A stretch of DNA of 48,830 bases, counting the filler, from Jimgerdemannia flammicorona (taxonomy: Eukaryota): NCBI GenBank assembly GCA_003990765.1. It is 2 parts of 2 records of this genome, joined end to end, with 100 filler letters (N's around TTAATTAATTAA, not from the genome) between each part and the next. Parts side by side here need not be neighbours in the genome. Positions count along the whole stretch, not along the records: positions 1 to 24,368 come from RBNJ01000984.1; 1 more part is not named here. The stretch is one strand, 5' to 3'. Both the position numbers and the translations under genes were made by a program. The notes beneath the pieces are model-generated. The model was not told where the DNA came from, ran no database searches, and saw nothing but the letters and a program-made list of their open reading frames with translations. Within the stretch, counting starts at the first letter, position 1. Each line of letters begins with the position of its first letter. This document shows positions 1-43,304 of the stretch, in pieces.

Positions 1-4
1 AAAA

Positions 5-3447: not shown

Positions 3448-3660
3448 GTGACGTCACGCGAATGTCGTGTCGTCACGAATGGATTTGCAAAGAAGATACG
3501 TGAGAAAGGTCTTTACAGTAGTGTACTGGTCGCTTTAAAGGTGGAAGCCACAGTATATTAGTGAGACTACTTGCCAAGTACAATTCCTGGTCAAGAAGAA
3601 AAAAAAAAAAAAAACTTCTCTTTTCCACCTTATCTTCAGCCAAAAGGATTGTGACGTCAC
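3448..3660. promoter_or_regulatory. Two perfect GTGACGTCAC (CRE/ATF-type bZIP) palindromes upstream of the UGT start
   Basis: GTGACGTCAC at 3448-3457 and 3651-3660; the ATG is at 3687. Confidence 0.45.
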
Positions 3661-3686
3661 CAGCCGACCGTCCTTTCGTTAAAACC

Positions 3687-5753: not shown

Positions 5754-5973
5754 TTTCTGGGTGTATATATTTTATTTATTTTGAGAGAGAGGAAAGGTTA
5801 TAGATTGTTGTCCTAAACTCGACTATATTTTTATTCTTGACATCGATGGACGGGGTCTGAAATGTATATACATATTTGTCGACATGCCAAAAACCCAGTC
5901 ATATCACGTTCCCCACGTGACACCCATACCTATAGCGAATCGAGGGATCTTGAAAGTTGGAAAACTCTCACCC

Positions 5974-6886: not shown

Positions 6887-8134
6887 TGGAGAGTCGGGGG
6901 GCCCTCATTCGCACATGCCGGCCTCTACATATACTGAAACGGTCAGGGTTGCATTCGCTCGCGGCACACATAATAAGAGTGACGAGTGTGTTTTATAATA
7001 AAATAAAATAAATAAAAAAAGAAAAAAAACGTCCATGGCCCGCTGATTATTTAGAGCGCCCAGTCCCTTCGCCATGCCACTATCCAAGCTCAGCCTTTCG
7101 ACCTTGCCCAGCCCTAAGCGCTATGGTGTTAAGGGGAAGACGCCAGCTTATCTCTACTAGTTTTGACCCCTCTGCCAGGGTTATTTCATTGGCCAATAGC
7201 GATGACGTCAGGAAATCTGGCGGACCCGAAATACCGTGGAGAAATCCTCCATACAAAAGGTTACCGACCTCCCCAACACAGCAATCGAGAACCTCGAGGA
7301 GATACACCCGAGCCATAATGCCATCGAACGGTTATTCATTTATAGCTGAGTGAAGCACTTGAGGAATTTTTATTATTCTCTTTTATCGTAAAAATTTGAA
7401 TGATCGGATCGATGCAACGTAGGTATATTTTTCCTGCGTAGGAAGTAGGGTGGTGGGGGCTTTGGATGGACATTGGCTCTGTAGGGGGTTGCTGTGTAGT
7501 GTCTAGGTATGTGCGATCGAGGTGCGCACCATGGCAAGACGGCCGCGGAGAAGGTGGAAATGGGGTTGTGTCGAGGATGTAATCTCGTAGACGGCTTGGC
7601 ATGGTAACATTAAATGTGACATTTTCAACAGCCGTCAACGGACATACGCTCGTAACTATTTCCAATCATTGCACGCGCGCAGCTGTCGTCTCTTTATGTT
7701 AGCGGAGCGGCTATTACACGTACGTTAGTTAGTTAAGCGCTCAAAACTAGTCGCCAACCAATAATAGTTGATCGCAGCGGTCGTTCAAGATAAGTTTAGC
7801 TCATTACTTCGGTTATTAAGTAGTCTCTGATTCTGAATTATTGCGCGTAAACTCAAGCCATATGTGCGTTCTCGAATGAATTGTTGCTGTGAATGGTGTT
7901 GATGGCCCTTCCTGCTACCAGGGGAAGTGTAAAGACATGAGTATATATTCCGTGTCCCCGGGGCGACACAGGAGTGGGGAAATGGCCTAAAAGTTACTAA
8001 TTTTATTGATTTCTCCGATTTCAAACTTCCGGCATACTTGTCAGTATATTTTATCACCGGCACTTCATAGTTTTCATATATATGCACCCGCCTTGCCTTA
8101 TGCGGGGTTTTGATCAAAATATAGCCACTTTAAC

Positions 8135-10630
8135 CTAATGCTTGGCTGCGCTACGAGAAACCCCATAGTGATCGCCTGCTTCATCCAACAATCCCTCGAC
8201 AACCGTCAACCTCTTCACCAGACTCGCCGCGTTATACGGAAATCCCCTAGCGCCCACCGCGGACCTTAGCCTAGCTAATACCCGAACCACTCTTCCCACC
8301 ACCGCCCGTTCCGCACCCTCCTCTTCGTCCATATCCACATCCTCGTCCTTGTCCTCATCCTCGCTTTCGTCCTCGTCTTCCTCCCTTTCCTTCTCCTCCT
8401 CAGACTCGCTCTCCTTGCTCGCAAGCTTCGCACAGCAAGTCCTGAACGCCGGAAGGTCGTGTTCGAGGTACCGGAGGTAGAGCAGCAGAAACTCGAGGAA
8501 GGAGGGCGTCTCGGCCGAGATTAGGAAATCCAAGAGGATGGTGTGGTCGAAGCCCGTCTTGTGGAGGAGGTGGAGGAGAAGGTCGTGCGGGCCGCAGCTG
8601 AGTGGGGGACGGAGGGGCGAGGAGAGGCGAAAAGCGAGGAGAGTGCTGAATGGAGTAAGAGAGGATTAGAACAAGAAGGGGAGTCGAAGTTTCTGCGGAA
8701 ATATTTTCGGGGAAGACCTGTATCTCTACTATGTGCTTTTGTGAAGAAAGAAATATGAATAGATTGTATCAAACCCAAAGCTTACCTCACATAACCATCC
8801 TCATCACGACCGTCTACATTGTAACATAATTCTTCCATGCACACCAGCCTTTGCGCCGAATACCCTTCTCGTGCCAACAATTTCTTCGACAGAGTAGCGA
8901 TCCGGACCACCTGAAGTTGTAAGTCGACGAGATCGCCATCATTGTTGCCATAAAGGTCAAAGAGAAGATCGTGCAGGTGGGATTGCGGAATTTGCGAAAT
9001 GTCTGTTCAAAAGAGCGATGGTATTGGGATGATATAGACAACGATGAGTCGGCATAATCAATGCATTCAGCCCAAGCAACGTAGCCCAAACCCACTCACC
9101 CGCCCACAATTCCGCCACTCTCGCCCATCCGGCATACAGCTCCCTCAACCGCTCGCGCCTTTCATTTGCTTCCTTCGCGCTCCATACACCATGCCCCTCC
9201 ATACCCTGCAGAACAGATAGCGCGCACGCGACGTACACGTGCACCACGCGCCTCACGCATTCCCGGTCGAATCCGGCATTGGCTTTGTCGTTCGCAGTGG
9301 TTGGTGGGGGGGCGTGACAAAACTCGCATCGGTCTGGCGCGCATATCATGGCGAGAGTAGCGGGGGTGAGGTGGTGGTGCAGCCTGACGGTGTAAGGGTG
9401 AAGGTTGATTTGGATGGATAGGAGCTTTTTCACGGAGAGGGATCACGTTGAGTTGATGAACGTACGAGGACATATGCAATTGAACATGCGCCACTATAGG
9501 AATGATGGTTCTTACCGTGGATAGATTAGGCTGATTCTTTGCGAGGAGGTGCATTAGTTCTAGCACTTTCCTCGTGATGACGATGTGCTTGCTGCCCATC
9601 ATGCTCGATATCTTGAGAGATGGCATTCCCCAATCAGTGGTCAGTCGAAACGGCAATCAGACATGGTCCGAGATTTGACAAACGAAAATGACGACCACCT
9701 GTTCCAGGTTCTGCACCACAACTTGGACGATGCCCTCGATGCTTTCACGGAAAAAAATATAGTCGTCTCGCTCCTCTTCCCGGCTTGTTTTATCTGACGG
9801 CAACAGCGTGTGGATTTTCACAATATCTACGAGAAAAACGATAAGCGGGATCAATATCATCTACAAAAGGTTCAAGACGCACTCAAATGTGAGTTTCAAT
9901 TTCTAGACACGAAAACTAACAATGCACGAGCAAGGTCAAGTAAACTCCGCGCAGACCATACCACATCCTGCAACCCTAGAAGCAGTCGAATCCACGCCGT
10001 CGGATCCCTGCCGAGAATACGAACGACAAGCGAGTACGCCGCAGAACGTTGCGACAGATCGCATGGGACATCTTGCGATTCTGACGTTGCCCGAAACGTC
10101 TTGCGAAATGACTTGAGCACCGCGTGGAATAGCTCCAACGCGGCTGCGCGCGTGGTCGAAAGTGGAGTTGATAATGGGTGGAGGAGATTGTGGAATTGAT
10201 CTGCCAGAAGAGGCGCGATCGGTTGTAGTGTATTGGTGAACTCCTAGGGGAAAAGGTGACGAAAGGTTACACGGGTAGGTAGATAAATGTTTGATGATCA
10301 GTGTGTCGGGCATATACCTCAATGTGGTCGTCGTGATATGCGATCAGGTGCTTCAATAGGATGCCGACTCTGTACACAACGAATTTGTCTCGCGCGCAAG
10401 AGAGGTCGGACTATTGAGGAGCGTGAGCTTGGGGTGAACCTTTGGTAGGGCAAATGTTGGGCATGATTGATACTGGACCAGTGAAGGAGACTCACGAGCT
10501 CTTGGTGACGCTGTAGCAATTGTTGGTAAGTCTGGTAGGTAGTTTCATTGTTGGGGTTCTCAAAAATGGTTGCGATACGGGTGAGGGCAATGGATAGTTG
10601 GAGGGGATTGTTTGTCGCGAGAGTATCCAT
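8135..10630 (-). CDS. LINS1: Protein Lines homolog (Lines_N and Lines_C domains), multi-exon
   Basis: Last exon PHDLLLHLLHKTGFDHTILLDFLISAETPSFLEFLLLYLRYL ... acidic insert ... GFPYNAASLVKRL matches the Lines C-terminal motif. An upstream exon TILFDLYGNNDGDLVDLQLQ resembles Lines_N. ATG at 10630 (MDTLATNNPLQ). Confidence 0.8.
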
Positions 10631-10779
10631 CAATTTTGTGTGGCGAAGTTTATTAAAAAGTTACCTTAAGACCATTGGTACCATTTTGATCATTGTCCGT
10701 GATACCGTGATGTGATATCGCTACTCCGAGACATCCGAGACAGTGGATTGTATATAACCATTTGGGAGCATATTATTCC

Positions 10780-11120
10780 AATATTTGAATAATAGATCTT
10801 TGAATATTATTTATTTTAAAATAATGAGATTTTAAATATTTATATAATCTATTTATATAATTTATATTTGCATCTTCTATGTATATGTAACTATAAAACA
10901 AAGTATTACCTAATATTAAAAATAAAGTAATTTATTATTTTAATATATATAAAGTTTTATAATAATATATTAAATGATAAAAAATATAATATTAGTTTAT
11001 CATAAACTATTATAACTCGTATTTTATAATAATAATAAAGATAAACCAGTAAAGATATAACATTATTCTATATAATTATTATAAATAAAATTCCAAAAAA
11101 TAATAATTTAAGACTTAAAG
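10780..11120. other. Very AT-rich island in the divergent intergenic region; probable decayed TE relic
   Basis: Abrupt shift to near-pure A/T with almost no CpG, resembling the decayed blocks at 34230-35400. Confidence 0.4.
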
Positions 11121-11936
11121 AAGGACAGGGGCAAGAAAAGAAGCTACAGCTAATAGTCAAGCAAAACTTCTCACCAACAATTCGTTTTATCATTAAAATC
11201 ATTTTTATTTTGGTAGTTTTTAGACAACTTATTATATCAAAACGATTACAACACTCGTCAGTTATGGAGAGAATAAGCGAGTGGACGAAATCTTAGAGAA
11301 AGGGGGGGGTTTTTTTTCTCACCCCTTGAACCAATCAACCACTGCAGCGGTAGTTTGATTGGTAAAAGCCGCAGAGAGTCGCTTGGCATCATCCTGTCGA
11401 GTTGGCTCATGATATGTAGCTACAATAATGGCAATCGCTCAATGTCACCAGAATAATCAGTACCGTTCGGACCGGGCCCGAAAAGTATGTCCCAAAAATG
11501 GGTTTCTCCTCCTGCTTTATCCAATATTTAAAGGGTCGAGACCATATTTAACAGAGGGCTTACGCAAGGCTGGAGTTTGTAGCTTGATCAGCAATTGGCA
11601 TTCAGGCTGTGGTAGCGGATCGATGGTTCCGCGATGTCCTCCGAGCCCCGTGCGTGAGGGACTACAACATTATTGCGGATTGGCAGCATGGGTAACACGA
11701 CAATTTCCATTTCTTGAGATTTCCACGGAGGGGCGGCTCAATCGGGGGGGCACGGGTCAATCGATGGGGAATGCACCAACAGCCATCACCGAGCAACGAT
11801 GATCTGTACCACCAGTTGTTATAGACACTGCTGATCTGTATTACTCTCTCCGCTCTAAAACATCAACATAACCACGCTATCCGTAAATCCTCTAGCGGTC
11901 AATGGTGCCGCCGTCCGTCCGCCCTAGCTTAGAACA

Positions 11937-13510
11937 ATGCGAAGCCTCACCGAACTCCCCCCCATCCTCCTCTTCCAGTTCCTACTTTACCTCACCCTTA
12001 TCATCTCCCCGGTAACATCACAGTACGACGGCAACCAACCGCAGCGTTGGGATCTCGTTTCCGACCGCCACCATGGACAGACCTACCGTCCCTACACGCC
12101 GGAATCCACTACCAACACTAAGCGCTCCCAAGCTTTCACCCCTAACTACGAGATCCAGTTGCACGACACACGCTACACCATTTCTCGTATAGGCGAGGGA
12201 GGCACTAGGGGCAAACCTCACAACGGCAATGACTATGACTACGACCACCATGGTTTGGGATCGTACAACCTGGTGGCAGATCAAACATCGTCGACAAGAG
12301 GCAGGCCCACGGCTACAGCGGGGAGCTCGTTCTATCAGCCCCGCGCCCGCCAAAATACTACGGACTCCAAGGTGTACATCAACATCACAATATCGCTAAT
12401 GTGTGATTATGGAATCGAAAATACAGATTTTTGCATTCAGAAGGTGGCAAATGCCATTGCGAGTGCGGCCATGTACTTAAACTCAGTGGTGAATCTGATG
12501 ACCCCAATAAAGTGAGTGTATGCGTGTAGGTTGGGAAGTTTTGGTGGATGCATATGTATTGAGGACACGTATGGAGAATTGGAGTCGGTGAACTTGACAT
12601 TTTCTAAACGCATTCAAAAATAACTTTGGAAAGCAAAATAATAATAATAATGTACTGACTCTTCTTTATCTATGTAACATCTCTTTCCCTCACAAAAAAA
12701 AAAAAAAAAAAAAAAAATCATCTGCAGAGTTTGCGCAACATATTGTAGCTTCTGCACCAACGGCTGTTCAAACAACACTCTCGGATGGGCCGCTCCGGGC
12801 TCGCAAGTACGTTCCCCTACATTCATTACCTCCCTAACCTTTGTTATCTCCACGTTTAACCGTCATATTTCGCCCCCTCCTCTCGCAGTGGACCCTCCCG
12901 AATCTTGCCAACGTCGACCCCAACTACCTTTACCCGCAGTCGCTTGCCAAGCAGTTGGTACCGTTTAACATATCGATGAACTGGAACGAATGCGACATTA
13001 TCGCCGAGTTCAACCATGACGCGTACATGGCCGGTATCAAGAACGCGCCGATCGTAACGAGCGACGTCACGAACACGACGAACACCACGAGCGTGAACCT
13101 TATCCCATCGGGCGGGCTATTCTGGTTTTCGGTATTTGTTTATTTATTTATTTGTCACTATTATTATTTCAAGGGAGAGGTGGTGGGACGGGAATGTGGG
13201 AAAATCAGGAAAAGGAACGTCATTTTGTTGTATTGGAGAATATATTGTATGTGAATGTTCTGTGAATGCTGGGAGCGGGAAGCGTTGTCGGTACAGCGGT
13301 AAAAATGGGCATTTGCCAACGTCTCGGTTGCTCAATTTGATGCTGCAACTTTTCTTTAGAGCGACCCACAAATTCGGTCGGATCAGGTCGACATGAAGTA
13401 TCTAATTCTGCACGAACTCATTCATGGCTTTGGTTTCATCAGGTATTATGAGATCAAATGAGACAAAATGGCGTGCCTTGAATTATTATTATTAAAATAC
13501 TGTAATTAAC

Positions 13511-13555
<45 letters not shown>

Positions 13556-14454
13556 GCTCTTGGGGTGCCTATTTCCTCTCCTCCGGGTCCCCTTACAACG
13601 ACTTTCTCGGTTCCGTTCTCTCGACACAACAACTCCAGCTGCTCACGCCCTCCCCAATGGTCACCACCGACCTCAACGGCATTACTTACATGTCCGGCTT
13701 CCTCCCATCCATGATTTTTGACAAATTCCTTATTGGCATTGACCCTTCCAACCCCAGTTCCCCGCCACAATCCCTGGGGACACTCGGCGAACAGATCCAG
13801 TCGCTCTGTTCTCCCAATCAAGGATCCTTCGTCCTCGACTTTGTCAAAAAGCTCCTAAACACCCCCTCCGCCGCCGACGCCGCGCGCCAACTCTGGCGCA
13901 TCGTCAACGCCAACCAAACCCTGTTCTTCCAGTTCCCGACCGACCAGCCGTCCCCGTATGTGAGCTACTCGAACCTCACTATGTACACCACGAGCAACAC
14001 CACTCTCTCCACCTCCGAACAGAGCGTGACCAACTTCCGCCCTGGTGTCTCCATCTCCCACGTTGACAGCCAGTATGTCACCACCACCGAGTTCCTCCTG
14101 CGGTACACGCCGCCCCTCGGCTTGACCCTGGACGACATCTCCCGGCAGACCCAGCAGAACAGCCAGACGATCTCCTACACGGTCATGGTCAACGGCACCC
14201 TCGAGACGAAGCAGTACGATTCGCCCATCGGGCCGGGGATTCTGCACGTCCTCGAGAGCATGGGGTACTCGACGGTACTAATGCCGAGGCAATACCCCGC
14301 GCAACCGAGTTCGGATAAGATGTGGGAGCCAAAGAGAAGCTCGGTGTGCTTGCCGCAGACAAAGTCCGAGGCGACGAGGGGAAGTTGGACCAGAGGGTGG
14401 GCGTTAGCTTATTGGATGACGTTGGTAGGCGGCTGGACTTTGCAGTTGGCGTGA
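11937..14454 (+). CDS. Secreted, possibly GPI-anchored zincin-like (HEXXH) metalloprotease, multi-exon
   Basis: Signal peptide MRSLTELPPILLFQFLLYLTLIISPVTS; motifs NPNYLYPQSLAKQL-like (DPNYLYPQSLAKQL), CDIIAEFNHD, DMKYLILHELIHGFGFIS (HELIH at 13411), FRPGVSISHVD and PIGPGILHVLESMGY; hydrophobic C-terminus WALAYWMTLVGGWTLQLA. Confidence 0.8.
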
Positions 14455-15957
14455 AGGCGGATCGACGGGTTCATTTGGAGGGATATTGGTTTTCATAAAA
14501 ATAGACAGGATTGAACAACCCTGGTGGTATAGCGTTGAACGTATTACACTTCTCTTATGTCTCTGGACAGGGTTTCGTTTATGCATCATGTTCATTATAT
14601 TTTTATTTTATTTTTTCTTTGCCACCATTAACTGGTTTTCGCCCAAAGGTTTGCGCTATTCATCATTTTGCAATCCCGCATTTTTGTACACTTTTCCGAG
14701 CTCTGCATAGTTTTACACATGTAATTCAGATATTTAATATTCAGATATTTAATCCGTCTCCTGTACATTAGTTGATGTTATTTTTGGTAACCCCGCTTCG
14801 TCCCACATATTTCCATATCATTAGATCAAGTCCATTTTGTTGAAATTTTATAACAGGGTTTGCATTAAAACAAGACAACCAACACACGAGAATGCCAGCC
14901 TCCGTGACACACCGAAAGGTAGATCCTTTGTCCCAAAAATCCCATTTCGCACAAACGGATGGCTTGAATCGGACCCAGACACGATTGCCTGAAATCATAT
15001 AACCAACAGGTGCCTAGGGACAGGTCCATGCTACAAAGCCCGGAAGCTATTCATATCTCCATCTTGACTCGTTAAATCTCCGTCTTACTCCTTCGATAGC
15101 CCGTGCCCTCTATTAACTGCCACCCGTATATGCCAAACCGCACGTGATAATAAATTGGACGAGTATATATGTGTTTGGGCGAATGGGCGCATGGGGAATG
15201 TTTCTGTCTCGAATGCGTTGCATCGAAGAACCCGACATACAAGAGGTGTACAGAATAGGGAGGTGAAAACCGTGTGATGACGATGACGATTGAGCGTAAG
15301 GGGAAGGGGACAAGATGGGCGGTCAGTGAATTCTGTGATTGAATGATATGGACATGTGGATTGCCTAATCGAGTAGTACGCGTCTTTTAACGCGCTTCAA
15401 CAATGGACGACACGATTTAGAGAGCAGAGATGGGCCGTCCTGTTTGGTTATCGGACGTCCTTGCCGTAGACGCAGATGAATGTGTGTTCAGATTGTTGTG
15501 GCACCGGTCGCTCTATTGGAGGCGAGGGGGTTGACAAGCTTGACATAGGAGGCATGCTCGATGGGGAGGATTTTTGCAGATCTTGGGACGGAAGGAGACG
15601 AGGCAAGAAACGGAACAATGGTCGGCAAGACAAAGACGAGCAGCCTTACAAAATGGTGGGGAGGAACCGCAAGACAAGAAAAAGAGCAATGCTCGGCGGG
15701 ACGTGCACATTGGCCATCAATAGCCAAGAGGGACCCACAAATCATTGTACGGTATCGGCGCACCAACGTTGTGGTGCGGTTCTATAGCCGTGGGCAATCT
15801 TTTCGCTCCTTTGGTTTGTTTGGCATTGCGCCATCTCTCATGTCCCATAATAATAGGATTTCACAGCCGATGATGACACGGCATATTACTAATCAACAGG
15901 GTAATTAGAGAGTGACCGGGATGAGGTGTGCAAGGTGTATAGGGGAGGAGGGTACCT

Positions 15958-16003
15958 GAATCTCAACACTTCAAAAAGCAGAATCTCAACACATCAAAAA
16001 GCA
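15958..16003 (+). repeat. 23-bp tandem duplication GAATCTCAACAC(T/A)TCAAAAAGCA x2
   Basis: Read directly at 15958-15980 and 15981-16003. Confidence 0.85.
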
Positions 16004-16073
16004 ATGGGTATATACATATAACCGCCTTTCGGATAGTGAGCCCGACACGTGCCGATTAGAATGAAGAACCTAA

Positions 16074-17500
16074 GAGCATCTCCACCGGGAGGGTTAAATT
16101 TAGGGGTAAATTACACCCAAAGATAAGGCTTATCCTGACACCTTTATTTTATTTAGTCCTAGCGAGACTGGCATGCGCACCGCGGTCAGGGCTAAATAGA
16201 GGGTCAAACTGAACACACCACCCCACCAACTTCCACATAGGTCTACCTATGCATTTGCCACAAGCAAGCTATTGTTCTTCTTGCAGCTTGAAGAATGGCT
16301 GAACCATGGTGGCTCACACTTCCGGGCAGAGCTCCAAACATGGATTGAGGTATCCAGCAAGGTCACGAGCATATCCTCAAGGACTACTTTGCTCCAGAGC
16401 TGGTCTATGGTGAAAAGGTCTTCCACTGATACTTCAAAATGCACTATTTACTCTTCCTCCACATTGTGGAAGCTGTAGAGGCTTATGATGCCTACTTTCA
16501 GCAGAAACCTGACACTCTAGAAAACCTTGGGCTTTTATTCATCCAGAAATATATCACAGCTATCTGCCAGCTGATATATGGAATGCCAGCTAATGCTGTT
16601 GATAAATATGTACAGATTGCTGAGACTATAGCCATCAGAGTCTGAAATGCTTCTGCCAAGCTATTATCTATATAATTGGTGATGAGTACCTATGCAGCTC
16701 CAATCAGGATGATGTGGAATAACTTCTGGTAGTCAGTGAACAGTGAGGCTTTCTTGGCATATTGGGCAGTCTTAATTATATATACTGGAATTGGAAAAAT
16801 GGTCCAATGGTCTGACAGGATCAGTATACTGATAAAGAAATAGGCCCAACCATTATTCTCAAGGCTATTGTCTCATATGATCTATAGATATAATATACTT
16901 TTTTTGGAATATCAGGATTCTACAATGATATTAATATTCTGGACAGATCTCTGCTTTTTATAGAGCTGCAGAATAGTTAGACATTTGCTACAATATTCAG
17001 AGTCAATAGCCATAAGTATCAAATGAGATATTTCCTCATAAATAGTATTTATCTCTCTTAGACAATACTGATTTACACTATTTTGCAGTTTTAAAGAGTG
17101 AAGAAGAAATACTTTACTATAATGTAAGAAGCAGTCAGAAAGAATATAGAAAGAGTATTTAGTATTCTATAAGTCAAGTTCACCATAATCTCTGGTCCTG
17201 CTTATTTCTAGTGAAAGGAGGATCTAAGTGATATTATGACTGCATACATTATCTTGTATAATATAATTATTAAAGACAAATGTAAAATTTATAAACTAGA
17301 TTTCAATTATGACCTACTCTTATCTTTTTTGGTTTCTCCTTCTTTCTATGAAGTAAACTATACATTTGATGAGTTTGTCTATTAATATCAGAGTATTTAA
17401 ACCTCTATAATATATTACTAGCTTCAAAATGATCTTATTAAACACTTTTAGCAATAGAAGAGAAAAGAGGAGTAAAATAGTAAAAATAAGTACTTTTATC
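16074..17500 (+). mobile_element. PIF/Harbinger DNA transposon remnant with pseudogenised DDE transposase (~16250-17476)
   Basis: TAA (16071-16073) followed by the Tourist/PIF-type TIR GAGCATCTCCA. Decayed transposase motifs: YDAYFQQKPDTLENLGL..QKY..AICQLIYGMPANAVDKY, GFLGILGSLNYIYWNWKNGP (consensus GFPGMLGSLDCMHWxWKNCP), DL*I*YTFFG (DLWIWHAFFG), YNDINILDRS. No right TIR found. Confidence 0.88.
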
Positions 17501-20500
17501 AGGTTCTTTCTTTACTATAATTTGCATTATACAAACTTTAGACAATACTTTCAATATAGTTTTTGAGAAAAAGATAATAATAATATAATAACTAGTATGA
17601 GTTCTAATAGGAGTACTGGGTCAGACAGACCTGGAGCTTTCAGATAGCAGTATATCAGAAGGAGATATAGTCTAGAAATGAGCTCTTTTAATAAAGTGAA
17701 GAGTTAGAGAGAGTCTGAAGAATAGTTGGTGTTTGGTAGAGGAGGGGACAAGCAGAAGCTTATAAGCTTTACTAATAAGATGAAGGAGAGAGGCTGGTTA
17801 GTAAGCACTAGGGCTAGTGGGGCTAGTGGTAAGGATAAGCCGAGTCAGAGAAGAGTAAGAGGTCTTCTGTCTGAAGAAGTAAGTATAGAAGCTAGAAGAG
17901 CTATAGCTGGGAGAGAGAGAGTAACTATTGATAGTAGTATAACTGAGAATCTAGAAAAAATCCAAATATAATAGCTAATAATAGGGCTAGGCAGATAGGC
18001 TAAGAAAAGAGAGAGAACTTGATAGATAGTATAATAGATCTAGTAGTAGTATTATTACTCAAGAAGTCAATTTCAGAATTTACTATCATATTATACTTCA
18101 GGAGACTAGTAGTGATAGTAAAGATAGTTCTAGGACTAATATTAAAGTAGTTATCTGAGACTACTTTAGTAAAGTTCTTATATAGGCTAGAGAGAGTTGA
18201 GATGGGCTTTGAGAAGACAGAGCCATTGGAGGAGACTTTGAAGACTGAGTTAGTATTTAGTAAGTTAGTAGTATTAATGATAAGATACTTACAGTAAGAC
18301 CCCAAAGTGATATAGCTCTTAGTAAAGAGGGTATCTATAGTAATAACTGCTGAGATAAGATAGAGGTAATAGTAGAGTATAGTGATATAGCAGATGTTGT
18401 ATTCCAAGTCTAAAAGAGAACAACTTTCAGAACTAAAGATGTAGATATCTGGCTTTGACTTATAGAGAAAGAGACTATAGGAAAGGCCCAGAACTGGTCA
18501 TTAATAATAATGTGGAAAGTTTTCATCTATAAGATAATAAGGGTAAAAAGGAGTGAGATAGAGGAGAAGAATCTACTAGAAGCACTAAAAGACTTAAGTG
18601 AGATAATAAAATATTAAGCTATATATAGTATAGAGAGAGTATATTACATCCATCCACTTAGAGATAGTGGATGGAAAGTATATTCAGATAGATAAGGTAC
18701 TGTGAGAAAAAGCTTAAGAGAGAAAAAGGCAGAGAGACCTGTTGATAGAATTGAAAGCAGTATTAGTAGTTAGATTAGAGAAGAGTTCAGAGAGTATACT
18801 AGAGAGTATCTGGGCTACTGGCAGTATAGAGAGACAGATGGTAAGTATAGAAGTAAGTAGAGAAATGAAGGATTGGCAGCTCTATGATAATGGTATACTG
18901 GAAATATAGAAGAAGGAGATAGTGGATAAAGGGAGAGCTATAGCCCTAGAGCAGAAGGCTGGTGAGGATGTCAAGATAAGAGATACTTGCAAAGTTTGGT
19001 TTGGAGTATTAAATATTACAAAAGAGAGATAGATAGTTGACATTAAGGTAGAGAAGTTAGTGGATATCTCAGAGAAAGAGTGAGATGAGTTTATGAGTAC
19101 TGAACTAATACTATAAAATAGAGTAGAGAGTGATCAGATACTTCTAAGGAAAAAAATATTAGTGACTTATGATAGATATATATAATAATATATAATCTGG
19201 TAATATAGGAGTTGGGTGAGATAGACTTGAGGGTAATTGATAAAGACTACTATAAGAGGATCCTATAAGAGGATAGTATAGTAAAAGCTCTGAAGTCTGA
19301 GATATTGGTAATTTATCTAGATGAGAAGAGTTATGAGATAGATGTAGTAAAGGAGACAAAGTTGACTATGACTGCTAGAGATCAGACTGCCTTTTAGTAG
19401 AAGAAGTAAGATAGTAGTATACTCTGACAGAAAATATATCTAATATATAAGAAGAAGATAGAGGAGAAGAATGATGAGAAAATTACTAAGATTCTGGCTG
19501 AGTTGAAGATAAGGAAGGCTGAGGGGGCTGAGGTAGAGACAGAGTGTAGTCTATACTTAAATCATGAGATAATGAGTGTGAAGCTATAAAGAGTTGAGTT
19601 TACTCTATAACATTATTCTCTTATGAACAATATAACTAATATTTTCTCACTGAATGTGAATAGTTTAAGGAGTTCTGTGATATATCAAAACATTTTCTCT
19701 TAGCTAAAGAAATTGAAGGCTGATCTCTTTCTTTTGTAGAATATATACTGAGAGAAGAACTTAGATAAGCAGGATTGGACTAGGAAATGGAGTAGTATTG
19801 TAGTTTGAAGAAATAAGATTGGGATTCTAGTATGGAGTAGAAGAGGTGAACTTTGTAAAGTTAGCAACTAGAGTAGCTATTTGGTATAGGGGGAGTAATA
19901 TAGGCCAGAGTGAGAGTCTGTTGTTATTGACTTCTATTATTACTCAGTAGTGTGAAATAAGTAGATTGTATAGTTAGAGAGACTTTTAGATTATAGAGTA
20001 TTAGTAGAAATAGGAGTGAATGTTCTTGGGAGAGACTTCAATATAGTCAGAGATATGATGTTGAATAGAACTAATTAAGAGAGAAGTACTAGAGACCATA
20101 GTAGTAATTTGGAGATATGGAAGAAGATAGTGAGACTGTACTCTTTAGTAAATATAGATAGGGTATCATGAGGCAATCAGAGAATACATATATATCTATT
20201 GAGTAAATGGACTTAGAACAAAGATTAATTAGATATTAATAGCTGATTACTAGAGGATAGATATTTGGAAGAGATTAGAGATTAAGTAGTATCTATAATC
20301 TGATCATTAGAGATTGATAGAGTATGATCAGTTTGGAGAGAGTGGAAATAAACCTGGATATTAATATCTCAATTCTCTCTTACTGACTGAGAAAGTGCTA
20401 TAGGATATATGAGTGGAGAATATTGACCAGAAGATTATTTATTAAATTGGAAAAGAGTGCTCAATTGGAGTCTATTGAGTAAGACTAAAGGAGGCTGCTA

Positions 20501-21205
20501 GGATCTACTGGGGGAAGACTAGCAGGCTGACTAGAGAGCAGTAATATAAGAGAGTGAGGTGGGCTTTAATTAGATTGGTCTAGTTATAGATGGATTAGAC
20601 AGATCTGCTAGGGCTAGAGACAGGGGAAGATTGGAGACTAAATTGAGCTAAGTTAGAGATAGAGAGTATTGAGGAAGAAAGAAGAGACTTATGTAAAGGA
20701 GATATCAGTAAGATTGTAATAGTAGGGGCTTAAGGAGAGTGAGAGGCCCTCTAAATATCTATTATAACTTCTTCAGATATAGAGGGTGAGGTAAAGGTGG
20801 GATGATATACTCAATGAGGGCTCACTAGTATATAGAATCTAGCAGATCTTAGGCTCTCTAAAGGGGTAGTGGGGGGGATTTGTAGAGTGAGAAGAAAGAG
20901 AGTGCTGATGTAGTGGCTATTGAGTATATACTAGAAGATTGGCAACCTTCATAAGTAGAAGGTTTAGTTAATTTAATTCTGCTAGTCTAGATAGAGAAAA
21001 TCTAGTAGGTTTTTGCAGCTACAATATTGAGCACTATACTAGATGAGAATGATCTGCTTTAGAATTTTTGAAAAAAAATAGTGAGGATCTCAGAGGTATT
21101 AGAGAAGATGGCAATACTGTGTGACTTTATACTCTTATCTAGAAAGTAGGTTGGGAAGCAGGATCTTGGTCTGATAGTACTACTGTTTAAGAATAAGAGT
21201 AGATA

Positions 21206-22939
21206 TGTAAGCATACAACCTCTAAGCCACTGGAACCACATGTCACCCTCTGAACAAATCTGGAAATCACCTGTATGATCACAAAGCTGAGTCAAATCGA
21301 AGTCACCATGCATAAAGCTGAGTCAATATGAAGTCATGGAACATAAGATTTATACAAACAGAATCTTACCAATTAGGACCAAATGTATATATACCAAGCA
21401 CTGATATGTATTGAAATAGAGAACTAAAAACAAACAATAACCATAACTTCTGAATATACACAAATATGACCACCGAGATCTACAACTGTATCTGTGCTGA
21501 CATTTGAAATACTATTGTCAACCAAGCCACACTCTCTCTGCCTCTCATGAATATCCATAGCTTAGCACTTCTTTACTTTATGGAAGCCCAATGGAATGCC
21601 CTGAATATACTTAGTGAGACCTACTGAATTGGACAAATCTCAAGCTACTATCAGATTGGCTGCCTCCTAGAAGACATGATTGAACACCACCATAATATAG
21701 ACATTATCCAGATGTCTCAACACCAGAAACTCATTGCCTGCAAATACTGAGAACTCTTTTATGAGTATAGTACTGTTATTCCCTATCTCAAAGTTACTAC
21801 TAGTGAAATGATTGCTACTCTATTCTATAGCCAAATCGACGATATGATATAAGAACTCAATCACAAGTACCTTGAATATATTCAGACCACAGACAGAACC
21901 TTCCCACACCCCAATAACTATATTCTGCAAATGCCTCAAGTCAGATACATAATGAAGAATATCTATAATATAATTCGATTTGACAAAGATGAAGTAGAAG
22001 ACAATGATCCCTCTGATGCTGACATAACCTCAAGCTAAGGATCTCTGCCAACCCTGATCATACTACCAACCTTGTCAATGAACTTACAACAGTTCATAAC
22101 CACATATAAGACTTATTGGGATAATGATTACTGGTATGAATACCAACTCACATTCACTTCTGATCACTTTAACTATAATGAAGAGACTGGAAAACACAAC
22201 CTGTATCTTCAGACAACCTTCAAGATCGAACCAACCACTCTACCACCTGAGTACAAGTGACATGAACCATAGCTGCCAGCTTACTATAATCCTGCAACTC
22301 ATAGTACTATAACCTATAGAAGGTATATAGACAGCAAATCCAATAAAAGCGAAGATGATATACCACTCCTTCACCCACCAACTCCATACCCAGTATATGA
22401 GACAGATGATACTATCCTATGGGACAGTAATGAAGTCCTAATATATTACTATCTCAGCAAACAAGAAGAATTAATTCATGAACAACTCTTCCTAGATAAC
22501 TACTTTATCAGAGATGATACCATTGATAGTAATATCATTGAAGACTACCCAGATAGCATTGAAATCTATAAATAGTTTAGTAGTCATAGTATAGTTAGAT
22601 TAGCCTTGTATGATATGACTGCAAACTAACTCAGCAATCAGACAATCTCTTGATATGTCAGATTATACTTATAACTGCATTCTGACTCAGCAAGATACTA
22701 AAGTGCTACACCCATATCTAGTATAGCTTAGATAGCTCCTCACTAGTATAAATACCCCCTCTCCCAGACTTCAGAATCTCAGACTTAAATAGACTTAAAT
22801 ACTTGAACAATCTGAACACAACTCTTGAGCACTTCTCTATAATATCCATTTATACAATTACTCCTAGTATAGCAATATCATAAATAGTGAATAAATCTAT
22901 TTAATAACCCACAAATCACTCTTAAGTAAATCTGCTCTC
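21206..22939 (+). mobile_element. Long LTR-like unit (3'-truncated) containing an internal ORF
   Basis: Starts TGTAAG exactly where LINE homology stops. TGAGTCA x2 (21288, 21319), TGACTCA (22683), TATAAATACCCC (22747), AATAAA (22890). No CA end seen because a second LTR interrupts it. Confidence 0.55.
21466..22575 (+). pseudogene. About 370-codon orphan ORF, a single frame broken only by point-mutation stops
   Basis: MTTEIYNCICADI*NTIVNQATLSLPL...YWDNDYWYEYQLTFTSDHF...EDYPDSIEIYK*. The same frame runs from 21466 through ORF 22072-22260 to TAG 22575. Internal stops are TGA/TAA/TAG, derivable from CGA/CAA/CAG. Confidence 0.7.
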
Positions 22940-23360
22940 TGTTAGGTCCCACTCCTAACTCTGTCATGAAATTTCCTAATTGGGTATTGTCTGCAGTAAT
23001 ATGCCAATTCAACTAAGCTGGCCTTAGTTTCTTGAACTCCTGAAATATGAAAAATTCTAAATATCCAGAACTAGTCTGAAAAAGAACTTTGGTTGAGACA
23101 TCAACCTGAACTTAAAATCAATAAGTATAGAGAATGTACTCTATATAAAATTGATCTTGACCATAAGAAAACAGTCTTTCAGAATATCCAGAACTTCCAG
23201 AAAATCCTTCCAGAACTATGTAATGATTACTCTAAAAAGCAACCCTTTTATAAGATAGAAGAATTGAAAGAACTGATAGTCAATCATACTTCTGGATATA
23301 GACAGGAAGTTGGTCATGAAAGTGATTATTATATATATGATTGTAAAAGGTGACCCAACA
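22940..23360 (-). mobile_element. Solo LTR, 421 bp, reverse orientation
   Basis: Terminal inverted repeats TGTTAGGTC...GACCCAACA. TATAAAAGGG on the minus strand (23243-23252). Flanks do not form a matching TSD. Confidence 0.65.
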
Positions 23361-23647
23361 GATATTGGATGAGAAGTAAAGAAACTTTGTTAAAGACTAT
23401 TTTATAAGAGATAAAATGTCATAGATACATATACATATAGTATCAGTGAAGAGATGAGAACTAGTGAGTTGAATGGGAGATTGGTCTTTCTAGACTAGAA
23501 GAAGGTCTATAATTATGTAAGATAAGTATGGCTAAAAAAGGTATTAGACAGAATTAGTATCTCTTAGTAATTTTGAGTTTCAATAATTAGTTTATTGGAG
23601 AATAGCAGAGCAGTACTTATATACAATAATTATCATAGTATAATATT

Positions 23648-24241
23648 CTCTTTTTGTTTTACGGACTCATGTCCCGCGGATTTTTATTGGAAGGGAACCT
23701 AGACTATATAGGCCAAAACCCTCCCCCACCACCCACCAAGCACTGCCCCCCCATTAACCTAGGCTAGCTATTGTCCAGCAGCTCGACCATACCAGACGCA
23801 GCAGGGCTAATAAGCCCGCACCTCATTCTGCACACCATGCTCTCCCTACCACCAGGGGAAACCCAACCATACACCAATGACCGAAAGCGCATACCTGAGA
23901 ACCCAACGTATGTACAAGGCCACGCCCGAGCCGAATAGAATAGCCCCTGCCATCCCAAAGAGAATGACAGGCAAAGAAAAAACACTCATCAAAGCACAAC
24001 ACGGTGGGTAGGGCCTGGTTCTCCCAGTCGAGGTGAGTAAAGGACTTACACGTGAGGCGGGAGGAAACCCCCAATACCCCACTACTCAAGCCTGCGGGCC
24101 TCGATCACGTTGCCGTGTCAGCTCCCGGTTCCAGTTGAGTGCAGCCAAGACGCCTGAAATGGGTAGCCTTGGGCTCCCCGACCCCCCCTGACAACTGGGG
24201 CCTCACCCCGCTACCCGCCAAAAGAAGCCGAGAGTGACACC
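23648..24241 (-). mobile_element. CpG-retaining 3' end/3' UTR of a non-LTR retroelement (or SINE-like element)
   Basis: Minus strand ends with AATAAA (23683-23688), a short hairpin GGAC-ATGA-GTCC and an A-rich tail AAAACAAAAA. G-rich minus strand like the neighbouring LINE. Confidence 0.5.
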
Positions 24242-24468: not shown

Positions 24469-27400
24469 CCCCCTATCCAATCCCCCTAGGGGGGCCCCCC
24501 CCTCCTACCTCTTCCCTGTGAAAGACCACTTTGTCGAACACTATCCCCACCCTCCCACTACTCTGCTCACAGATCTTCATCACCAAACCATGATGTCATC
24601 CTCCCGGAGGACCCCAACCCACCCACCATCTGGTCAGCAGATCCCCCACCAGCTCCTCCCACCTTGACACCTTCTCATGCAGCCCCAACTACTGCCCCTC
24701 CTCAAATACAAAAAGCCAATGGCCTGCCAGTCCCACCCATACTACTAACACCCATCCTACAGTGAGCCAACTATCCTCCACCCCACCTACAAGCTGAGAT
24801 CTTAAGTCCTCCCAGCGACCCCCCTCCCTCACCTGCTGATGCCCCACACCCAGTCTATCCCCTATCTCAAGGGGGGGGACAATGTCTCCCAACCAATCTG
24901 ACTCTGTCTGCCAGCCCAGATCCACCCCTTAGCCACCTTCATTAATCTCTTCACTGCCCAGGCCAGGAAGTCCAGGTGATAAGCTAAATACCATAGCTTC
25001 GGCAGCCAATATACATTCAAAATTGAGACCTGCCCTGTCAGAGAAAATTATCTTCCCCCCAACCCTGCAAGTCCTCCTCCCAGATTCCAATCCTCTGCTC
25101 CCACCAAAGCCTCAGCAAAACTGACCTATAGACTGACAGATAAATGCCCAAGTACTGCACTGCCTTACCGGTGGGGACAATTGCTCCTATAACTTCTCCT
25201 CCCACCAGTCCATTGCCTAGCACCATAGTCTCACACTTGTGCCAATTCAGCTTAGCCCCAGAGTTCTCCTCATACCACTCCACTGTCTTCTTGAGCTCCT
25301 CAACATCATCAATTGATCCCAGCACAAACACCATGTCATCCACAAAGGCCCCAACTTTCCACCCAATTCCATAGATAGAGAGCCCTGCTATCCTCTACCT
25401 AATTCTGTCCATTAGGGGTTCTAGGGAAAGAGCATACAAAATGGAGAACAGTGGGTCCCCCTGGGGCACCCCCCTACTCAGGGGAAAAGCTACCCCTCTA
25501 TGTCCATTACACATGAGTGCAGCCCTGCTCCCTTCCAGTAGGCTGACCATTGCTGACCAAAATCGTCATGGAACTCCCATTCTATCCAATACTTTCTCTA
25601 GCCAGACTTATCACACCCTGTCATAAGCCTTCTCCTGATCCAAGAAGACTAGATGCCCATCCAGTCCACAGGCTCTTGCCCCTTCAATGACTCCATGTAC
25701 CCAGGCTGTACTATTCCTAATAAGCTGACCACTCACAAATCCCCTCTGCTCAACACCCATGACTTGCTGGGCCACCTTTTGTAGCCTTGCAACCACCACT
25801 TTAGTCACCATCTTTCTGTCCATATCTAGCAACATTATCGGCCACCAATTCTTCCAATTCTCTCACCTTCCTTTATTCTTATAAAGCAGCATCACCAGCC
25901 CAAGATCCTGCTCTCCCACCCATCTCTCTATCTGTAATATAAAGTCACACAGTGCCATCATCTCTTCCATCACACCTGGGACCCTAACCATTTGCTTCCA
26001 GAAGTCCCAGGGCAGACCATTCTCTCCAGGTGCCATACCAGAGGTTGTCACAGCAAGAACCTGGTGGATCTCATCCTCTGTTATGGGTATCACCAGGTCA
26101 CCAAGCCCTTCTACTTGTGGTGGGTGCCAATCTTCCAATGTTCAGTCAATAGCAGCAGCATCTGCCCCACCTTCCTCCTTACTCCACAATCCACTCCATT
26201 GCTCCTTCAACAATCCAAGAATATCCTACACACCATGCACTAGTACACCCTCCAAGTCTAGTAATCCATTCCACCATTGCTGTACTCTTCTTACTCTAAG
26301 GGCCTTTATGAGGAACTTAGAAGGCCTCTCTCCTTCCTCCAGCACCTGCCAATGAAGCTATGCTGCCAGGCTTTGCACCCTTGCCTCTTCCTCTTCCTGC
26401 AGCACCTGCTGTAGTTCCCCAACCTCCATCTTTGTCCTCAGGAATCACCAATCTTCTTCTCTCTCCAACATTGCTATTCTTGCCCACTCCTCCAGAAGCC
26501 TAGCCAATCTAGTAGAAGCCCAATGCACTCTATACTTTCTCTGCTTCCTTGCCTCCTTGCCCACCTCACTCTAGTAAATCCTGGCCATCTCTTTCATCCT
26601 CATCCACCAAACCCCAATTGAGGCACCTTCCTGTCACCAGTTCTCCACCCTTAGCTGAATGTCTTTAGCCCACTCATCTCACTGGGACTTGTCATCTAAC
26701 AAAGAGGAATTTAGGCACCAATGTCCAGGCCCATTCCCACTACCCCCAAAGCACCCCTGTCCCAAGAGGCCCCAGTGATCTGACCATGGGCACCATTCCA
26801 CCTCCAGTGACTTCCAAACATCTCAGCCCCAGCAGCTGGCTGTCAGAATCCAGTTGATCCTTGTCCCCAGGCCCCCAGCCCAATGTGTATACACTCTCCT
26901 ATCCCCCCAGTACTCCCAGCTAGCATCCATCAGCACACTAAGCCTCTCTACTTCCTCCCACACTGCCAGTCCCCTACTCCTGCCCTCAGTGCCCCGTCTG
27001 CCATCTGTTCTATCCATCAGCATATCCCAAACCATATTGAAATCTCCCCCAAGCATATCCACCCCAGCCTCTGCAAGGATCCCACTCTCCTGAAGACCTT
27101 TTACCCATTCTATACACTCACTCCATATGGCTGGGCAGTAGCAGGAACCAACCGTAACTGGCTCCCAGCCTGCCCGAATCCACTCACCCCAAACCAGTCT
27201 CTCTCTCTAGCTCCTCACATCTCTTATCTCCCCTCTGCCCTTCTGAACCAGAATCCTGACCTCGCCTTTCCAAATCACCATGTCTCCCCATTCCTTTGTC
27301 CATTCCATCCTATCAGAATCATCCTCACACCTTATATCCTGTAAGAGGAAGAGATCAGCTTCCAATCCCTTCAGCTAAGTAAAAATATTCCTATGCCTAA

Positions 27401-29580: not shown

Positions 29581-29589
29581 TACTCTTTC

Positions 29590-32000: not shown

Positions 32001-32049
32001 AAACATTCTGGCCCCCTCAGAGTCTCATATACACTCTAGGATATTTAGT

Positions 32050-43273: not shown

Positions 43274-43275
43274 TT

Positions 43276-43293: not shown

Positions 43294-43304
43294 GATTTTA
43301 AAAT

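Follow-up and report, generated by a model that had tools for sequence, protein, structure and literature searches.

Transposon-confined cytosine decay with a graded CG and non-CG context order in a genomic window of Jimgerdemannia flammicorona

The transposons in a stretch of 48,830 nucleotides from the Jimgerdemannia flammicorona assembly GCA_003990765.1 (hereafter the window; two parts from two records, joined by 100 filler letters) carry a footprint of cytosine decay that spares the host genes. The dominant signature confined to the transposons is loss of CpG, not change of CpA. The changes are mostly GC-to-AT transitions and fall on both strands, and mutation rates follow the order CG > CA > CC > CT in a Harbinger element, a Gypsy pair and a LINE pair. 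A real preference for CpA/TpG among the non-CpG C-to-T changes is found in three of four data sets and is weak in one of these, the LINE pair. On balance, the footprint itself points to transposons that were probably methylated at CG as well as non-CG sites, followed by deamination.

The host is J. flammicorona (Endogonales, Mucoromycota), a mycorrhizal fungus with a 231-Mb genome consisting of about three-quarters repeats, and is not a member of the Pezizomycotina. An earlier note on this DNA had guessed at a Mucoromycota-like host and described the genes adjacent to the transposons as untouched, and both statements hold: the UDP-glycosyltransferase ORF (4134-5753) is 100% identical to an annotated protein, and the gene regions keep observed/expected (o/e) CpG ratios of 0.79-1.37 (0.89-1.37 by stretch over 1-16000, and 0.79-1.08 over 35001-41000). 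The corresponding values for the transposons are 0.00-0.47 over 16001-35000 and 0.00-0.11 over 41001-48000. Such compartment-bound CpG depletion, with sharp borders and an excess of TpG and CpA (o/e 1.2-1.5 in the young transposons), is the pattern by which decay through 5-methylcytosine deamination is recognized. Young elements have almost no CpG and little TpA but are rich in CpA/TpG, with a substrate index of 1.3-1.96, and old relics show the opposite. One repeat-like stretch, 23660-24368, retains its CpGs (o/e 0.54-1.49) despite a metagenome contig depth of 742-1819. No RNA family of Rfam was matched anywhere in the window. The features are collected in Table 1.

Table 1. Host gene regions and transposon-derived features of the window
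Feature	Position	Strand	Basis and remarks
Host gene region, control	1..16199		CpG o/e 0.89-1.37; includes UDP-glycosyltransferase gene 4134-5753
PIF/Harbinger transposase pseudogene	16200..17299	+	Homologue alignment; frames 16331-16657 and 16660-17292, one frameshift, 15 in-frame stops
Flagged interval with DCMHW and WIWHA motifs, inside the transposase	16741..16910	+	Sequence; 19 inferred GC-to-AT transitions
LINE A, first part; old AT-rich copy, 32-36% GC	17300..21203	+	LINE B residues 220-1311 at 17956-21203 (tblastn); DNA alignment from 17300
Nested element in LINE A; 36% GC, long nearly open frame	21204..23252	+	Gap between two LINE A matches
LINE A, second part; reverse-transcriptase piece	23253..23648	+	tblastn to LINE B residues 1311-1438
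LINE B, younger copy of the LINE A family; endonuclease and reverse transcriptase	24469..29798	-	50% GC, CpG o/e 0.02-0.14
AT-rich block of transposon relics, 17-44% GC	29800..35300		Composition, blastn, alignment
Second host gene region, control	35400..40999		CpG o/e 0.79-1.08
Younger Ty3/Gypsy element; gag zinc knuckle, protease, dUTPase, reverse transcriptase	42001..48830	+	CpG o/e 0.00-0.08

At the start of the Harbinger pseudogene, CpG o/e falls from 0.95 through 0.17 to 0.00 inside 400 bp; there are 10 CpGs at 16000-16199, 2 in the next 200 bp and 0 from 16400, with seven consecutive CpG-free 200-bp windows, and GC declines along the element from.49 to.22. The transposase, for which 3358 homologues were found at E<=0.001, contains the decayed codons exactly as the earlier note had given them, CTT AAT TAT ATA TAC at 16771-16785 and TAG ATA TAA TAT ACT at 16885-16899. 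The ancestral motifs it had proposed for these positions, LDCMH and WIWHA, proved right, because they are carried both by homologue P0015 (40% identity, E 1e-53) and by the consensus of 39 homologues, which agrees with P0015 at both motifs: GCIDCMHWEWKNCP of P0015 stands opposite GSLNYIYWNWKNGP of the window, and its LWIWHAFFG aligns to LXIXYTFFG of the window. The further statement that nearly all changes are CpA to TpA survives only as an excess. CpA/TpG accounts for 10 of the 19 GC-to-AT transitions in the flagged interval, next to 6 CpC/GpG, 2 CpG and 1 CpT, and for only 35 of 81 in the whole pseudogene.

Compared with the 39-homologue consensus, the pseudogene shows 81 inferred GC-to-AT transitions and 15 other changes. 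Mutated sites amount to 23/32 for CpG (.72), 35/66 for CpA/TpG (.53), 17/49 for CpC/GpG (.35) and 6/39 for CpT/ApG (.15), where the counts are small, the ancestral states come from ~40%-identical homologues and codon parsimony breaks ties toward GC-to-AT. Independent of this tie-break are tests on sites where the ancestral amino acid dictates the dinucleotide, giving fixed contexts of CpA/TpG for His, Gln, Cys, Trp position 2 and Met position 3, and CpC/GpG for Pro position 1, Gly position 2 and Trp position 3. At these sites 14/22 CpA/TpG were mutated versus 9/33 CpC/GpG (Fisher p=0.012), and in columns that are >=80% conserved the numbers were 9/12 versus 6/23 (p=0.011); the CpA excess is therefore real and not an effect of the genetic code alone. 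LINE A, set against distant homologues (27% identity), gave 9/14 CpA/TpG versus 12/30 CpC/GpG, which is not significant alone; the pooled fixed-context test gave 23/36 versus 21/63 (p=0.006). The conserved sites of LINE B were mutated at 2/22 CpA/TpG and 2/48 CpC/GpG. The notion that the CpA claim was mere ascertainment bias of the genetic code was dropped after the per-site rates and the fixed-context tests.

The remaining data sets come from pairs of related copies and from the nested element. A relic at 33219-34300 derives from the 5' part of an element of the Gypsy family present at 42-48.8 kb (blastn and alignment), whose dUTPase is recognized by Pfam at 46675-47067 (E 4e-16). Relic and young copy differ by 49 transitions and 6 transversions, and the per-site changes are 4/4 for CpG, 21/48 for CpA/TpG, 7/26 for CpC/GpG and 7/44 for CpT/ApG. 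LINE B, read with its stops as X, matches RVT_1 (E 1.3e-25) and Exo_endo_phos (E 0.002) in Pfam. The rates at CG, CA, CC and CT in the LINE pair are.59,.47,.42 and.37, with a weak CpA preference (odds ratio 1.37); with 58% identity and a transition/transversion ratio of 1.8, the two LINEs have diverged so far that LINE B can hardly represent the ancestor, and the pair is a weak data set. The 33 stops within LINE B frame residues 180-1720 (13 TAG, 3 TAA and 17 TGA) are weak proof by their number alone, because three of the five single-transition routes to a stop codon are CpA/TpG by the structure of the code. Across the data sets, CpA is favored over CpC by a factor of 1.1 to 3.

Polarization of changes in the nested element relied on a soil-metagenome run (5% of sampled words) that is deep over 21124-24368. 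Its depth of only 0-1 over Harbinger makes it uninformative on the flagged locus, and most of LINE A is covered at a depth of 0-24. Contigs of the nested-element family reach depths of hundreds to thousands, and differ from the window copy at 292 transition and 27 transversion places. Among the best 40 of the 319 variable places, 34 are GC-to-AT changes that only the window copy carries: 11 at CpA/TpG, 13 at CpC/GpG, 8 at CpT/ApG and 2 at CpG. The order of contexts seen elsewhere fails in these 34 changes, where CC/GG is highest, and the set has no CpA excess, with 11.35 CpA/TpG, 7.92 CpC/GpG, 12.41 CpT/ApG and 2.32 CpG expected (p=0.18).

Transitions of C to T and G to A in repeats, with CpA/TpG preferred, would also be produced by canonical RID-dependent premeiotic RIP as in the Pezizomycotina, which we regard as very improbable here. 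In the strict sense, the label 'RIP-like' used in the earlier note is not supported. CpA is by far the preferred target of canonical RIP, whereas the fastest class in the Harbinger pseudogene is CpG (23/32 versus 35/66 for CpA/TpG). By the RIPper cut-offs (TpA/ApT >=1.1, (CpA+TpG)/(ApC+GpT) <=0.75 and a positive composite index, each over runs of windows; PMC6714961), the flagged locus fails on both indices, with values of 0.84 and 0.95 for TpA/ApT and of 1.66 and 1.46 for (CpA+TpG)/(ApC+GpT) in its two 1-kb windows. One of 96 windows does pass (17501-18500, in LINE A; product 1.64, substrate 0.71), six of 96 pass at a lax substrate cut-off of 0.9, and no run of seven positive windows occurs among the 96. 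The host belongs to the Mucoromycota, RID-1 is described as exclusive to the Pezizomycotina, and the RID1 rows of the published Dataset S1 contain no entry from the Endogonales (PMC9963178). A 2025 kingdom-wide screen reports RIP-like signatures as unique to ascomycetes, and its supplement lists the J. flammicorona genome as 'no_rip', with 23 k-mers enriched in non-coding DNA and TATA enriched 4.0-fold (PMC12543289). Relative to the gene regions, the old relics of the window are enriched in TATA 5.8-fold and its young elements 1.1-fold; an excess that resides in old relics and not in young copies would explain why a comparison of repeats with non-coding DNA scored zero.

The absence of a CpA excess from the best 40 of 319 places also fits another scenario, in which transposon-directed methylation occurs at CpG only. 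The rest would be neutral, AT-biased decay such as befalls old DNA that neither recombines nor is under constraint, together with the mild neighbour effects common to all genomes. AT-richness indeed follows apparent age: LINE B and the young Gypsy element, both nearly open, have 40-50% GC, and the relics 17-36%. The LINE pair has 15% transversions, and its GC-to-AT rate exceeds the AT-to-GC rate by a ratio near 3, which predicts an equilibrium GC near 25%. Nevertheless, we consider this scenario quite unlikely. Typical neutral spectra are far less skewed to GC-to-AT than the 81 of 96 Harbinger changes and the 34 of the best 40 nested-element places (of 319). Moreover, CpT/ApG decays 3- to 3.5-fold more slowly than CpA/TpG in two data sets (Harbinger and the Gypsy pair), and the possibly constrained non-coding DNA that separates the host genes has kept a GC content of 40-55% and a TpA o/e of 0.62-1.00.

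An APOBEC-like deaminase acting on retroelement cDNA is hardly credible as the source of the changes. On the sense strand of LINE A, raw counts do show 588 G-to-A versus 239 C-to-T changes, a surplus attributable to base composition. The sense strand is G-rich in both LINE copies, and the per-site rates are equal on the two strands (.40-.42 for G>A and.43-.46 for C>T;.41 and.46 in the LINE pair). Harbinger decays alike although, as a DNA transposon, it never passes through cDNA.

A CpA-specific component could nonetheless be superimposed on ordinary CpG decay. From the 5' to the 3' half of Harbinger, toward the repeat block, mutated CpA/TpG sites rise from 5/17 to 30/49 (p=0.028, a single uncorrected test on small counts); it is the only class to do so, with CpC/GpG flat at 4/11 and 13/38. 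This rise hints at a separate process, and the sole RIPper-positive window lies just beyond the element. Under such an interpretation, DIM-2-class enzymes of the Endogonales would drive an active, heterochromatin-linked and RID-independent mutator converting CpA to TpA in and beside repeats, much as Neurospora can carry out RIP without RID, or as Dim2 of Zymoseptoria drives CA-to-TA mutation in mitosis. The Neurospora pathway is very strongly CpA-preferring and hits adjacent single-copy DNA (bioRxiv 10.1101/115501), mitotic Dim2-dependent C-to-T mutation at CA is known (PMC8016269), and DIM-2-class genes are catalogued for J. flammicorona (PMC9963178). A context-free model derived from LINE B reproduces the GC content of LINE A but not its excess of TpA (TpA/ApT 1.27 versus 1.01 +/- 0.04), and CpA/TpG lies below the model (substrate index 0.93 versus 1.04 +/- 0.05); we give this little weight because alignment noise blurs the model.

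We nevertheless regard such a mutator as unlikely. The CpA preference is modest, in contrast to the near-exclusive preference of the known systems; CpC/GpG and CpT/ApG are also heavily mutated in Harbinger, and CpG is the top class here, whereas the Zymoseptoria mutator spared CG (PMC8016269). The polarized set, drawn from the best 40 of 319 places, is without CpA excess. No strand-coordinated runs of changes were detected in Harbinger, where C>T and G>A alternate in random order (43 runs versus 40.5 expected, z=0.58). 

Our favored reading remains that the transposons were methylated at both CG and non-CG sites and then deaminated. Several points speak against it: the polarized set (the best 40 of 319 places) has no CpA excess and the LINE pair only a weak preference, the stretch 23660-24368 retains its CpGs, the CpA/TpG class rises alone along Harbinger, the Dim2-linked mutations of Zymoseptoria spared CG (PMC8016269), and a review table assigns DIM-2 a 'CpT preference' (PMC13297926) where CpT is the slowest class here. 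The proposed order of events is as follows. The transposon blocks, and not the neighbouring genes, would be cytosine-methylated now or have been so for long in the past, with CpG as the main target and a sparser methylation of the other cytosines, ranked CA > CC > CT. Methylation would be carried out by DNMT1-family enzymes, including the DIM-2-class paralogues of the species. 5-Methylcytosine would then deaminate, perhaps spontaneously, turning C into T on both strands. CpG would go first, its loss inflating CpA and TpG, and this early disappearance would account for young, nearly intact elements that lack CpG. CpA/TpG would next decay to TpA, with CpC and CpT following more slowly, until the old relics are left with 17-35% GC and riddled with stops.

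The candidate enzymes are on record. DIM-2-like homologues occur in the Endogonales, as well as in the Glomeromycotina, and Dataset S1 of the same publication lists at least three DIM2-class proteins, with a BAH domain and a C5-methyltransferase domain, for J. flammicorona AD002 (PMC9963178). DIM-2-like genes are also known from Endogone sp., and Mucor and Rhizopus lack any 5mC methyltransferase according to that source. The suggestion in the earlier note of an uncharacterised non-CG methylation system fits best of what it proposed, with the reservation that a system whose DIM-2-class proteins are already catalogued for the species is only partly uncharacterised. A search of the full-text literature returned no methylome or mutation study of the Endogonales lineage, and early-diverging fungi are said to have largely replaced 5-methylcytosine by 6mA (PMC13297926).

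The window presents a strong, transposon-confined footprint of cytosine decay whose contexts are graded in the way that fits an enzyme of DIM-2 type. If this is true genome-wide, the Endogonales, and perhaps the Glomeromycotina, would be a group in which to ask whether non-CG methylation and its mutagenic side predate the Dikarya, and how a genome so large and so rich in repeats keeps its transposons dead. Should the less likely mutator exist, the DIM-2 branch of RIP would predate the Dikarya, and the kingdom-wide k-mer screen would have missed its signal because this lies in relics too decayed for repeat annotation.

Several known systems resemble the one described here in part. Canonical RIP likewise inactivates repeats by C-to-T and G-to-A transitions and raises their AT content, but it belongs to another phylum and strikes CpA first, whereas here CpG goes first, the indices are unmet at the locus and no RID is listed for the species. 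The CpG/TpCpG hypermutation of transposons in the Basidiomycota is closer in being a CpG-centred C-to-T decay outside the Pezizomycotina, and shares the uncertainty between methylation-deamination and a RIP-like process; only CpG (or TpCpG) is elevated there, whereas here CpA/TpG exceeds CpC and CpT, with a clear difference in two data sets and a weak one in another (PMC3318451). The heterochromatin-related DIM-5/HP1/DIM-2 pathway of Neurospora crassa is RID-independent and CpA-preferring and reaches repeat-adjacent DNA, a trait that recalls how CpA/TpG changes increase along Harbinger toward the repeat block; it is premeiotic and homology-triggered, and its CpA preference is very strong, in contrast to the 1.1- to 3-fold preference in the window (bioRxiv 10.1101/115501). 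The near-exclusive mutation of CA with CG spared, as in this pathway and in Zymoseptoria, is not what the Harbinger pseudogene shows, with 35/81 changes at CpA/TpG. In Zymoseptoria tritici, mutations are >98% at CA, whereas here CpG is fastest and CC and CT mutate too, and the evidence from that ascomycete is experimental, whereas ours is derived from the sequence of a member of the Mucoromycota (PMC8016269). The likeness is nonetheless considerable: a DIM-2-class enzyme is on record for both, the effect is confined to transposons in which CA is depleted and TA enriched, and the mutation rates observed here rank as do the methylation preferences of Z. tritici Dim2, CG > CA > CC and next to nothing at CT (PMC8016269).

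The window belongs to a mucoromycote, as the earlier note had guessed: an ORF at 4356-5168 lies in a UDP-glycosyltransferase gene (Pfam UDPGT) and matches an NCBI protein from Jimgerdemannia flammicorona (Endogonales, Mucoromycotina, Mucoromycota) at 100% identity across 97% of the ORF. The host is thus not a member of the Pezizomycotina, and the objection that such a host would raise does not apply. All measurements cover this one window of 48.8 kb, where nested transposons fill the DNA between and after two host gene regions. Among the host ORFs, one carries a LINES_N domain, unexpected in a fungus, the family being named for an animal developmental protein. The younger Gypsy element encodes a dUTPase, a uracil-avoiding enzyme that is possibly of interest in a genome whose repeats decay through cytosine deamination. 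The inverted pair flanks the region in which the window reaches its highest AT content (17% GC at 34001-35000) and may represent the decayed terminal repeats of a single old element. The two LINE copies share the position of one stop in the endonuclease domain (27377 in LINE B; NIFT*LKGL, NIFS*LKKL): either the defect predates their split, or a single Trp codon was struck in parallel in both.

Features of the window, in positions along the whole stretch
Feature	Position	Strand	Remarks
Host genes	1-16.2 kb		
LINES_N-domain host ORF	8135-8665	minus	Pfam E 1.8e-14
PIF/Harbinger transposase pseudogene	16.2-17.3 kb		
LINE A, old copy	17.3-21.2 kb and 23.25-23.65 kb		interrupted by nested 2-kb element
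Nested element in LINE A	21204-23252	plus	frame of ~480 codons, only ~9 stops; 36% GC
GC-rich stretch between two transposon relics	23660-24368		45-62% GC; CpG o/e 0.54-1.49
LINE B, younger copy of LINE A family	24.47-29.8 kb	minus	Pfam RVT_1, E 1.3e-25
AT-rich relic block	29.8-35.3 kb		
Inverted pair	30903-31243 and 34769-35120		80% identical
Host genes	35.4-41 kb		
Younger Ty3/Gypsy element	42 kb to window end		dUTPase, E 4e-16
dUTPase domain of Ty3/Gypsy element	46675-47067		Pfam E 4e-16

The earlier note described RIP-like hypermutation at 16741-16910 in the Harbinger pseudogene, with nearly all changes being CpA to TpA. The codon letters it gave at 16771-16785 and 16885-16899 match the sequence, and the earlier residues DCMHW and WIWHA are supported by one homologue and by a consensus of 39. 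Codons for Cys, Met, His and Trp can show TpG or CpA changes only, and of the five ways in which one transition can create a stop, three are of this type; an ascertainment bias of the genetic code was the first suspicion. At codon level, 183 consensus positions were compared, of which 84 had changed, and the inferred changes comprised 81 GC-to-AT transitions and 15 others; at sites where a transition would show, the rates were 23/32 at CpG, 35/66 at CpA/TpG, 17/49 at CpC/GpG and 6/39 at CpT/ApG (odds ratio 3.2 and p=0.0008 for CpA/TpG versus the remaining non-CpG classes). When restricted to sites whose neighbour base is dictated by the amino acid (fixed context), the test still separated CpA/TpG (14/22) from CpC/GpG (9/33, p=0.012), as it did in columns at least 80% conserved (9/12 versus 6/23, p=0.011). 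By these two tests, the CpA/TpG excess in Harbinger is more than an effect of the genetic code and is therefore real. It does not amount to nearly all changes, however, accounting for 10 of the 19 found at 16741-16910 and for 35 of 81 across the pseudogene.

The preference recurs in the Gypsy relic and, weakly, in the LINE pair. Over 318 well-aligned columns, a Gypsy relic (33.2-34.3 kb) differs from the young copy (42.05-43.3 kb) by 49 transitions and 6 transversions, with rates of 4/4 at CpG, 21/48 at CpA/TpG, 7/26 at CpC/GpG and 7/44 at CpT/ApG (CpA/TpG preference, odds ratio 3.1, p=0.008). Codon alignment of LINE A with LINE B (1176 codons) gave.59/.47/.42/.37 for CpG/CpA/CpC/CpT (odds ratio 1.37, p=0.003); with only 58% identity and 15% transversions between the two copies, LINE B stands in poorly for the ancestor. 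Polarised by distant homologues in fixed context, LINE A shows 9/14 at CpA/TpG versus 12/30 at CpC/GpG, and the young LINE B 2/22 versus 2/48; Harbinger and LINE A pooled give 23/36 versus 21/63 (p=0.006). Soil-metagenome contigs lie hundreds to thousands deep over 21.1-24.4 kb, which takes in the nested element plus flank, and the 319 variable places (292 transitions, 27 transversions) show a deamination-type spectrum. Among the 40 best-supported of these, 34 have T or A in the window alone and C or G in the family; these 34 (11 CpA/TpG, 13 CpC/GpG, 8 CpT/ApG, 2 CpG) show no CpA excess over the expected 11.35, 7.92, 12.41 and 2.32, respectively (p=0.18).

The contigs over the nested element itself are 80-99% alike, and their depth indicates that the soil in question is rich in this family or a near relative of it. 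The GC-rich stretch at 23660-24368, also deeply covered, terminates in short inverted GGATTCGAATCCCATCC-like repeats, like a DNA transposon end; a repeat that keeps its CpGs in this way has either arrived very recently or is spared by the process.

The transposons are marked above all by loss of CpG rather than of CpA. Per 1-kb window, CpG o/e ranges over 0.89-1.37 (1-16000) and 0.79-1.08 (35001-41000) in gene regions, and 0.00-0.47 (16001-35000) and 0.00-0.11 (41001-48000) in transposon regions, with a sharp edge: 10 CpGs at 16000-16199, 2 at 16200-16399 and none in the following seven 200-bp windows. Nearly open LINE B and the young Gypsy already lack CpG, with CpA and TpG o/e of 1.2-1.5 and low TpA. 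The RIPper cut-offs (PMC6714961) are TpA/ApT ≥1.1, (CpA+TpG)/(ApC+GpT) ≤0.75 and a composite >0; the two 1-kb windows over the flagged locus have 0.84 and 0.95 for the first index and 1.66 and 1.46 for the second, the RIP substrate index, which is high because young elements are CpG-poor, CpA/TpG-rich and TpA-low. One of 96 windows is positive (17501-18500, directly after Harbinger), and there are no runs of positive windows among the 96. RIP in the strict sense is thus not what the locus displays.

Editing of cDNA was ruled out by four observations: per-site rates on the LINE sense strand are equal (G>A.41, C>T.46), the strong GC skew is common to both LINE copies and so belongs to the element itself, C>T and G>A changes alternate randomly along Harbinger, and this DNA transposon is affected like the retroelements. 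Nor do these observations, taken together, give any sign of single-strand bursts. Along Harbinger, GC drops from.49 to.22, and CpA/TpG is the only class to rise, from 5/17 in the 5' half to 30/49 in the 3' half (p=0.028, uncorrected); CpC/GpG is flat (4/11 and 13/38). Two processes would each fit this gradient: non-CG methylation fading at a heterochromatin border, or a spreading CpA-specific mutator. An active DIM-2-linked mutator is the main rival to methylation.

DIM-2-class enzymes are reported for this lineage. The text of PMC9963178 describes RID-1 as exclusive to Pezizomycotina and DIM-2-like homologues in Endogonales and Glomeromycota; its Dataset S1 lists at least three DIM2-class proteins with BAH and C5-methyltransferase domains for J. 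flammicorona AD002 (part 234), and Endogonales are absent from its RID1 rows (parts 235-236). Despite the Pezizomycotina-only claim, those rows (part 236) also contain C5-methyltransferases from Gigaspora margarita and G. rosea that are short (293-327 aa) and share 24-28% identity with Neurospora RID. A kingdom-wide screen, PMC12543289, reports RIP-like enrichment as confined to ascomycetes; its supplement labels the J. flammicorona genome (231 Mb, 42.8% GC) 'no_rip', with 23 k-mers non-coding-enriched, none of them also repeat-enriched, and TATA 4.0-fold enriched in non-coding DNA. Within the window, TATA enrichment over gene regions is 5.8-fold for old relics, against 1.1-fold for young elements; other AT tetramers reach 2.5- to 3.1-fold in the relics. 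If decayed relics lack repeat annotation, a relic-borne TATA excess would score zero in a repeat versus non-coding contrast. Full-text search, with the genome paper outside its reach, turned up no publication on RIP-like mutation or methylation of cytosine in Endogonales, Jimgerdemannia included.

The original observation is real and significant, and its description is incomplete. Its interpretation was half right: strict RIP falls away, but the transposons show a deamination-type decay that is confined to them, and its non-CG component points to probable DIM-2-class methylation. Small counts, ancestors that had to be inferred, a single window and methylation read from sequence footprint alone limit the confidence. 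In Zymoseptoria tritici with functional Dim2, transposon 5mC prefers CG, then CA, then CC, with almost none at CT (PMC8016269), and the mutation order in the window is alike (CG > CA > CC > CT). Dim2 also promotes C-to-T at CA there, sparing CG in its mutational output (PMC8016269), whereas CG is the top-rate class here. Neurospora DIM-2 acts in a RID-independent RIP with a very strong CpA preference that extends into adjacent single-copy DNA (bioRxiv 10.1101/115501). Basidiomycetes are reported with elevation at CpG or TpCpG only (PMC3318451), unlike the window, which also has a CpA/TpG excess. On this comparison we would file the case as methylation-type cytosine decay of repeats, a mechanism of known kind in a lineage new for it.
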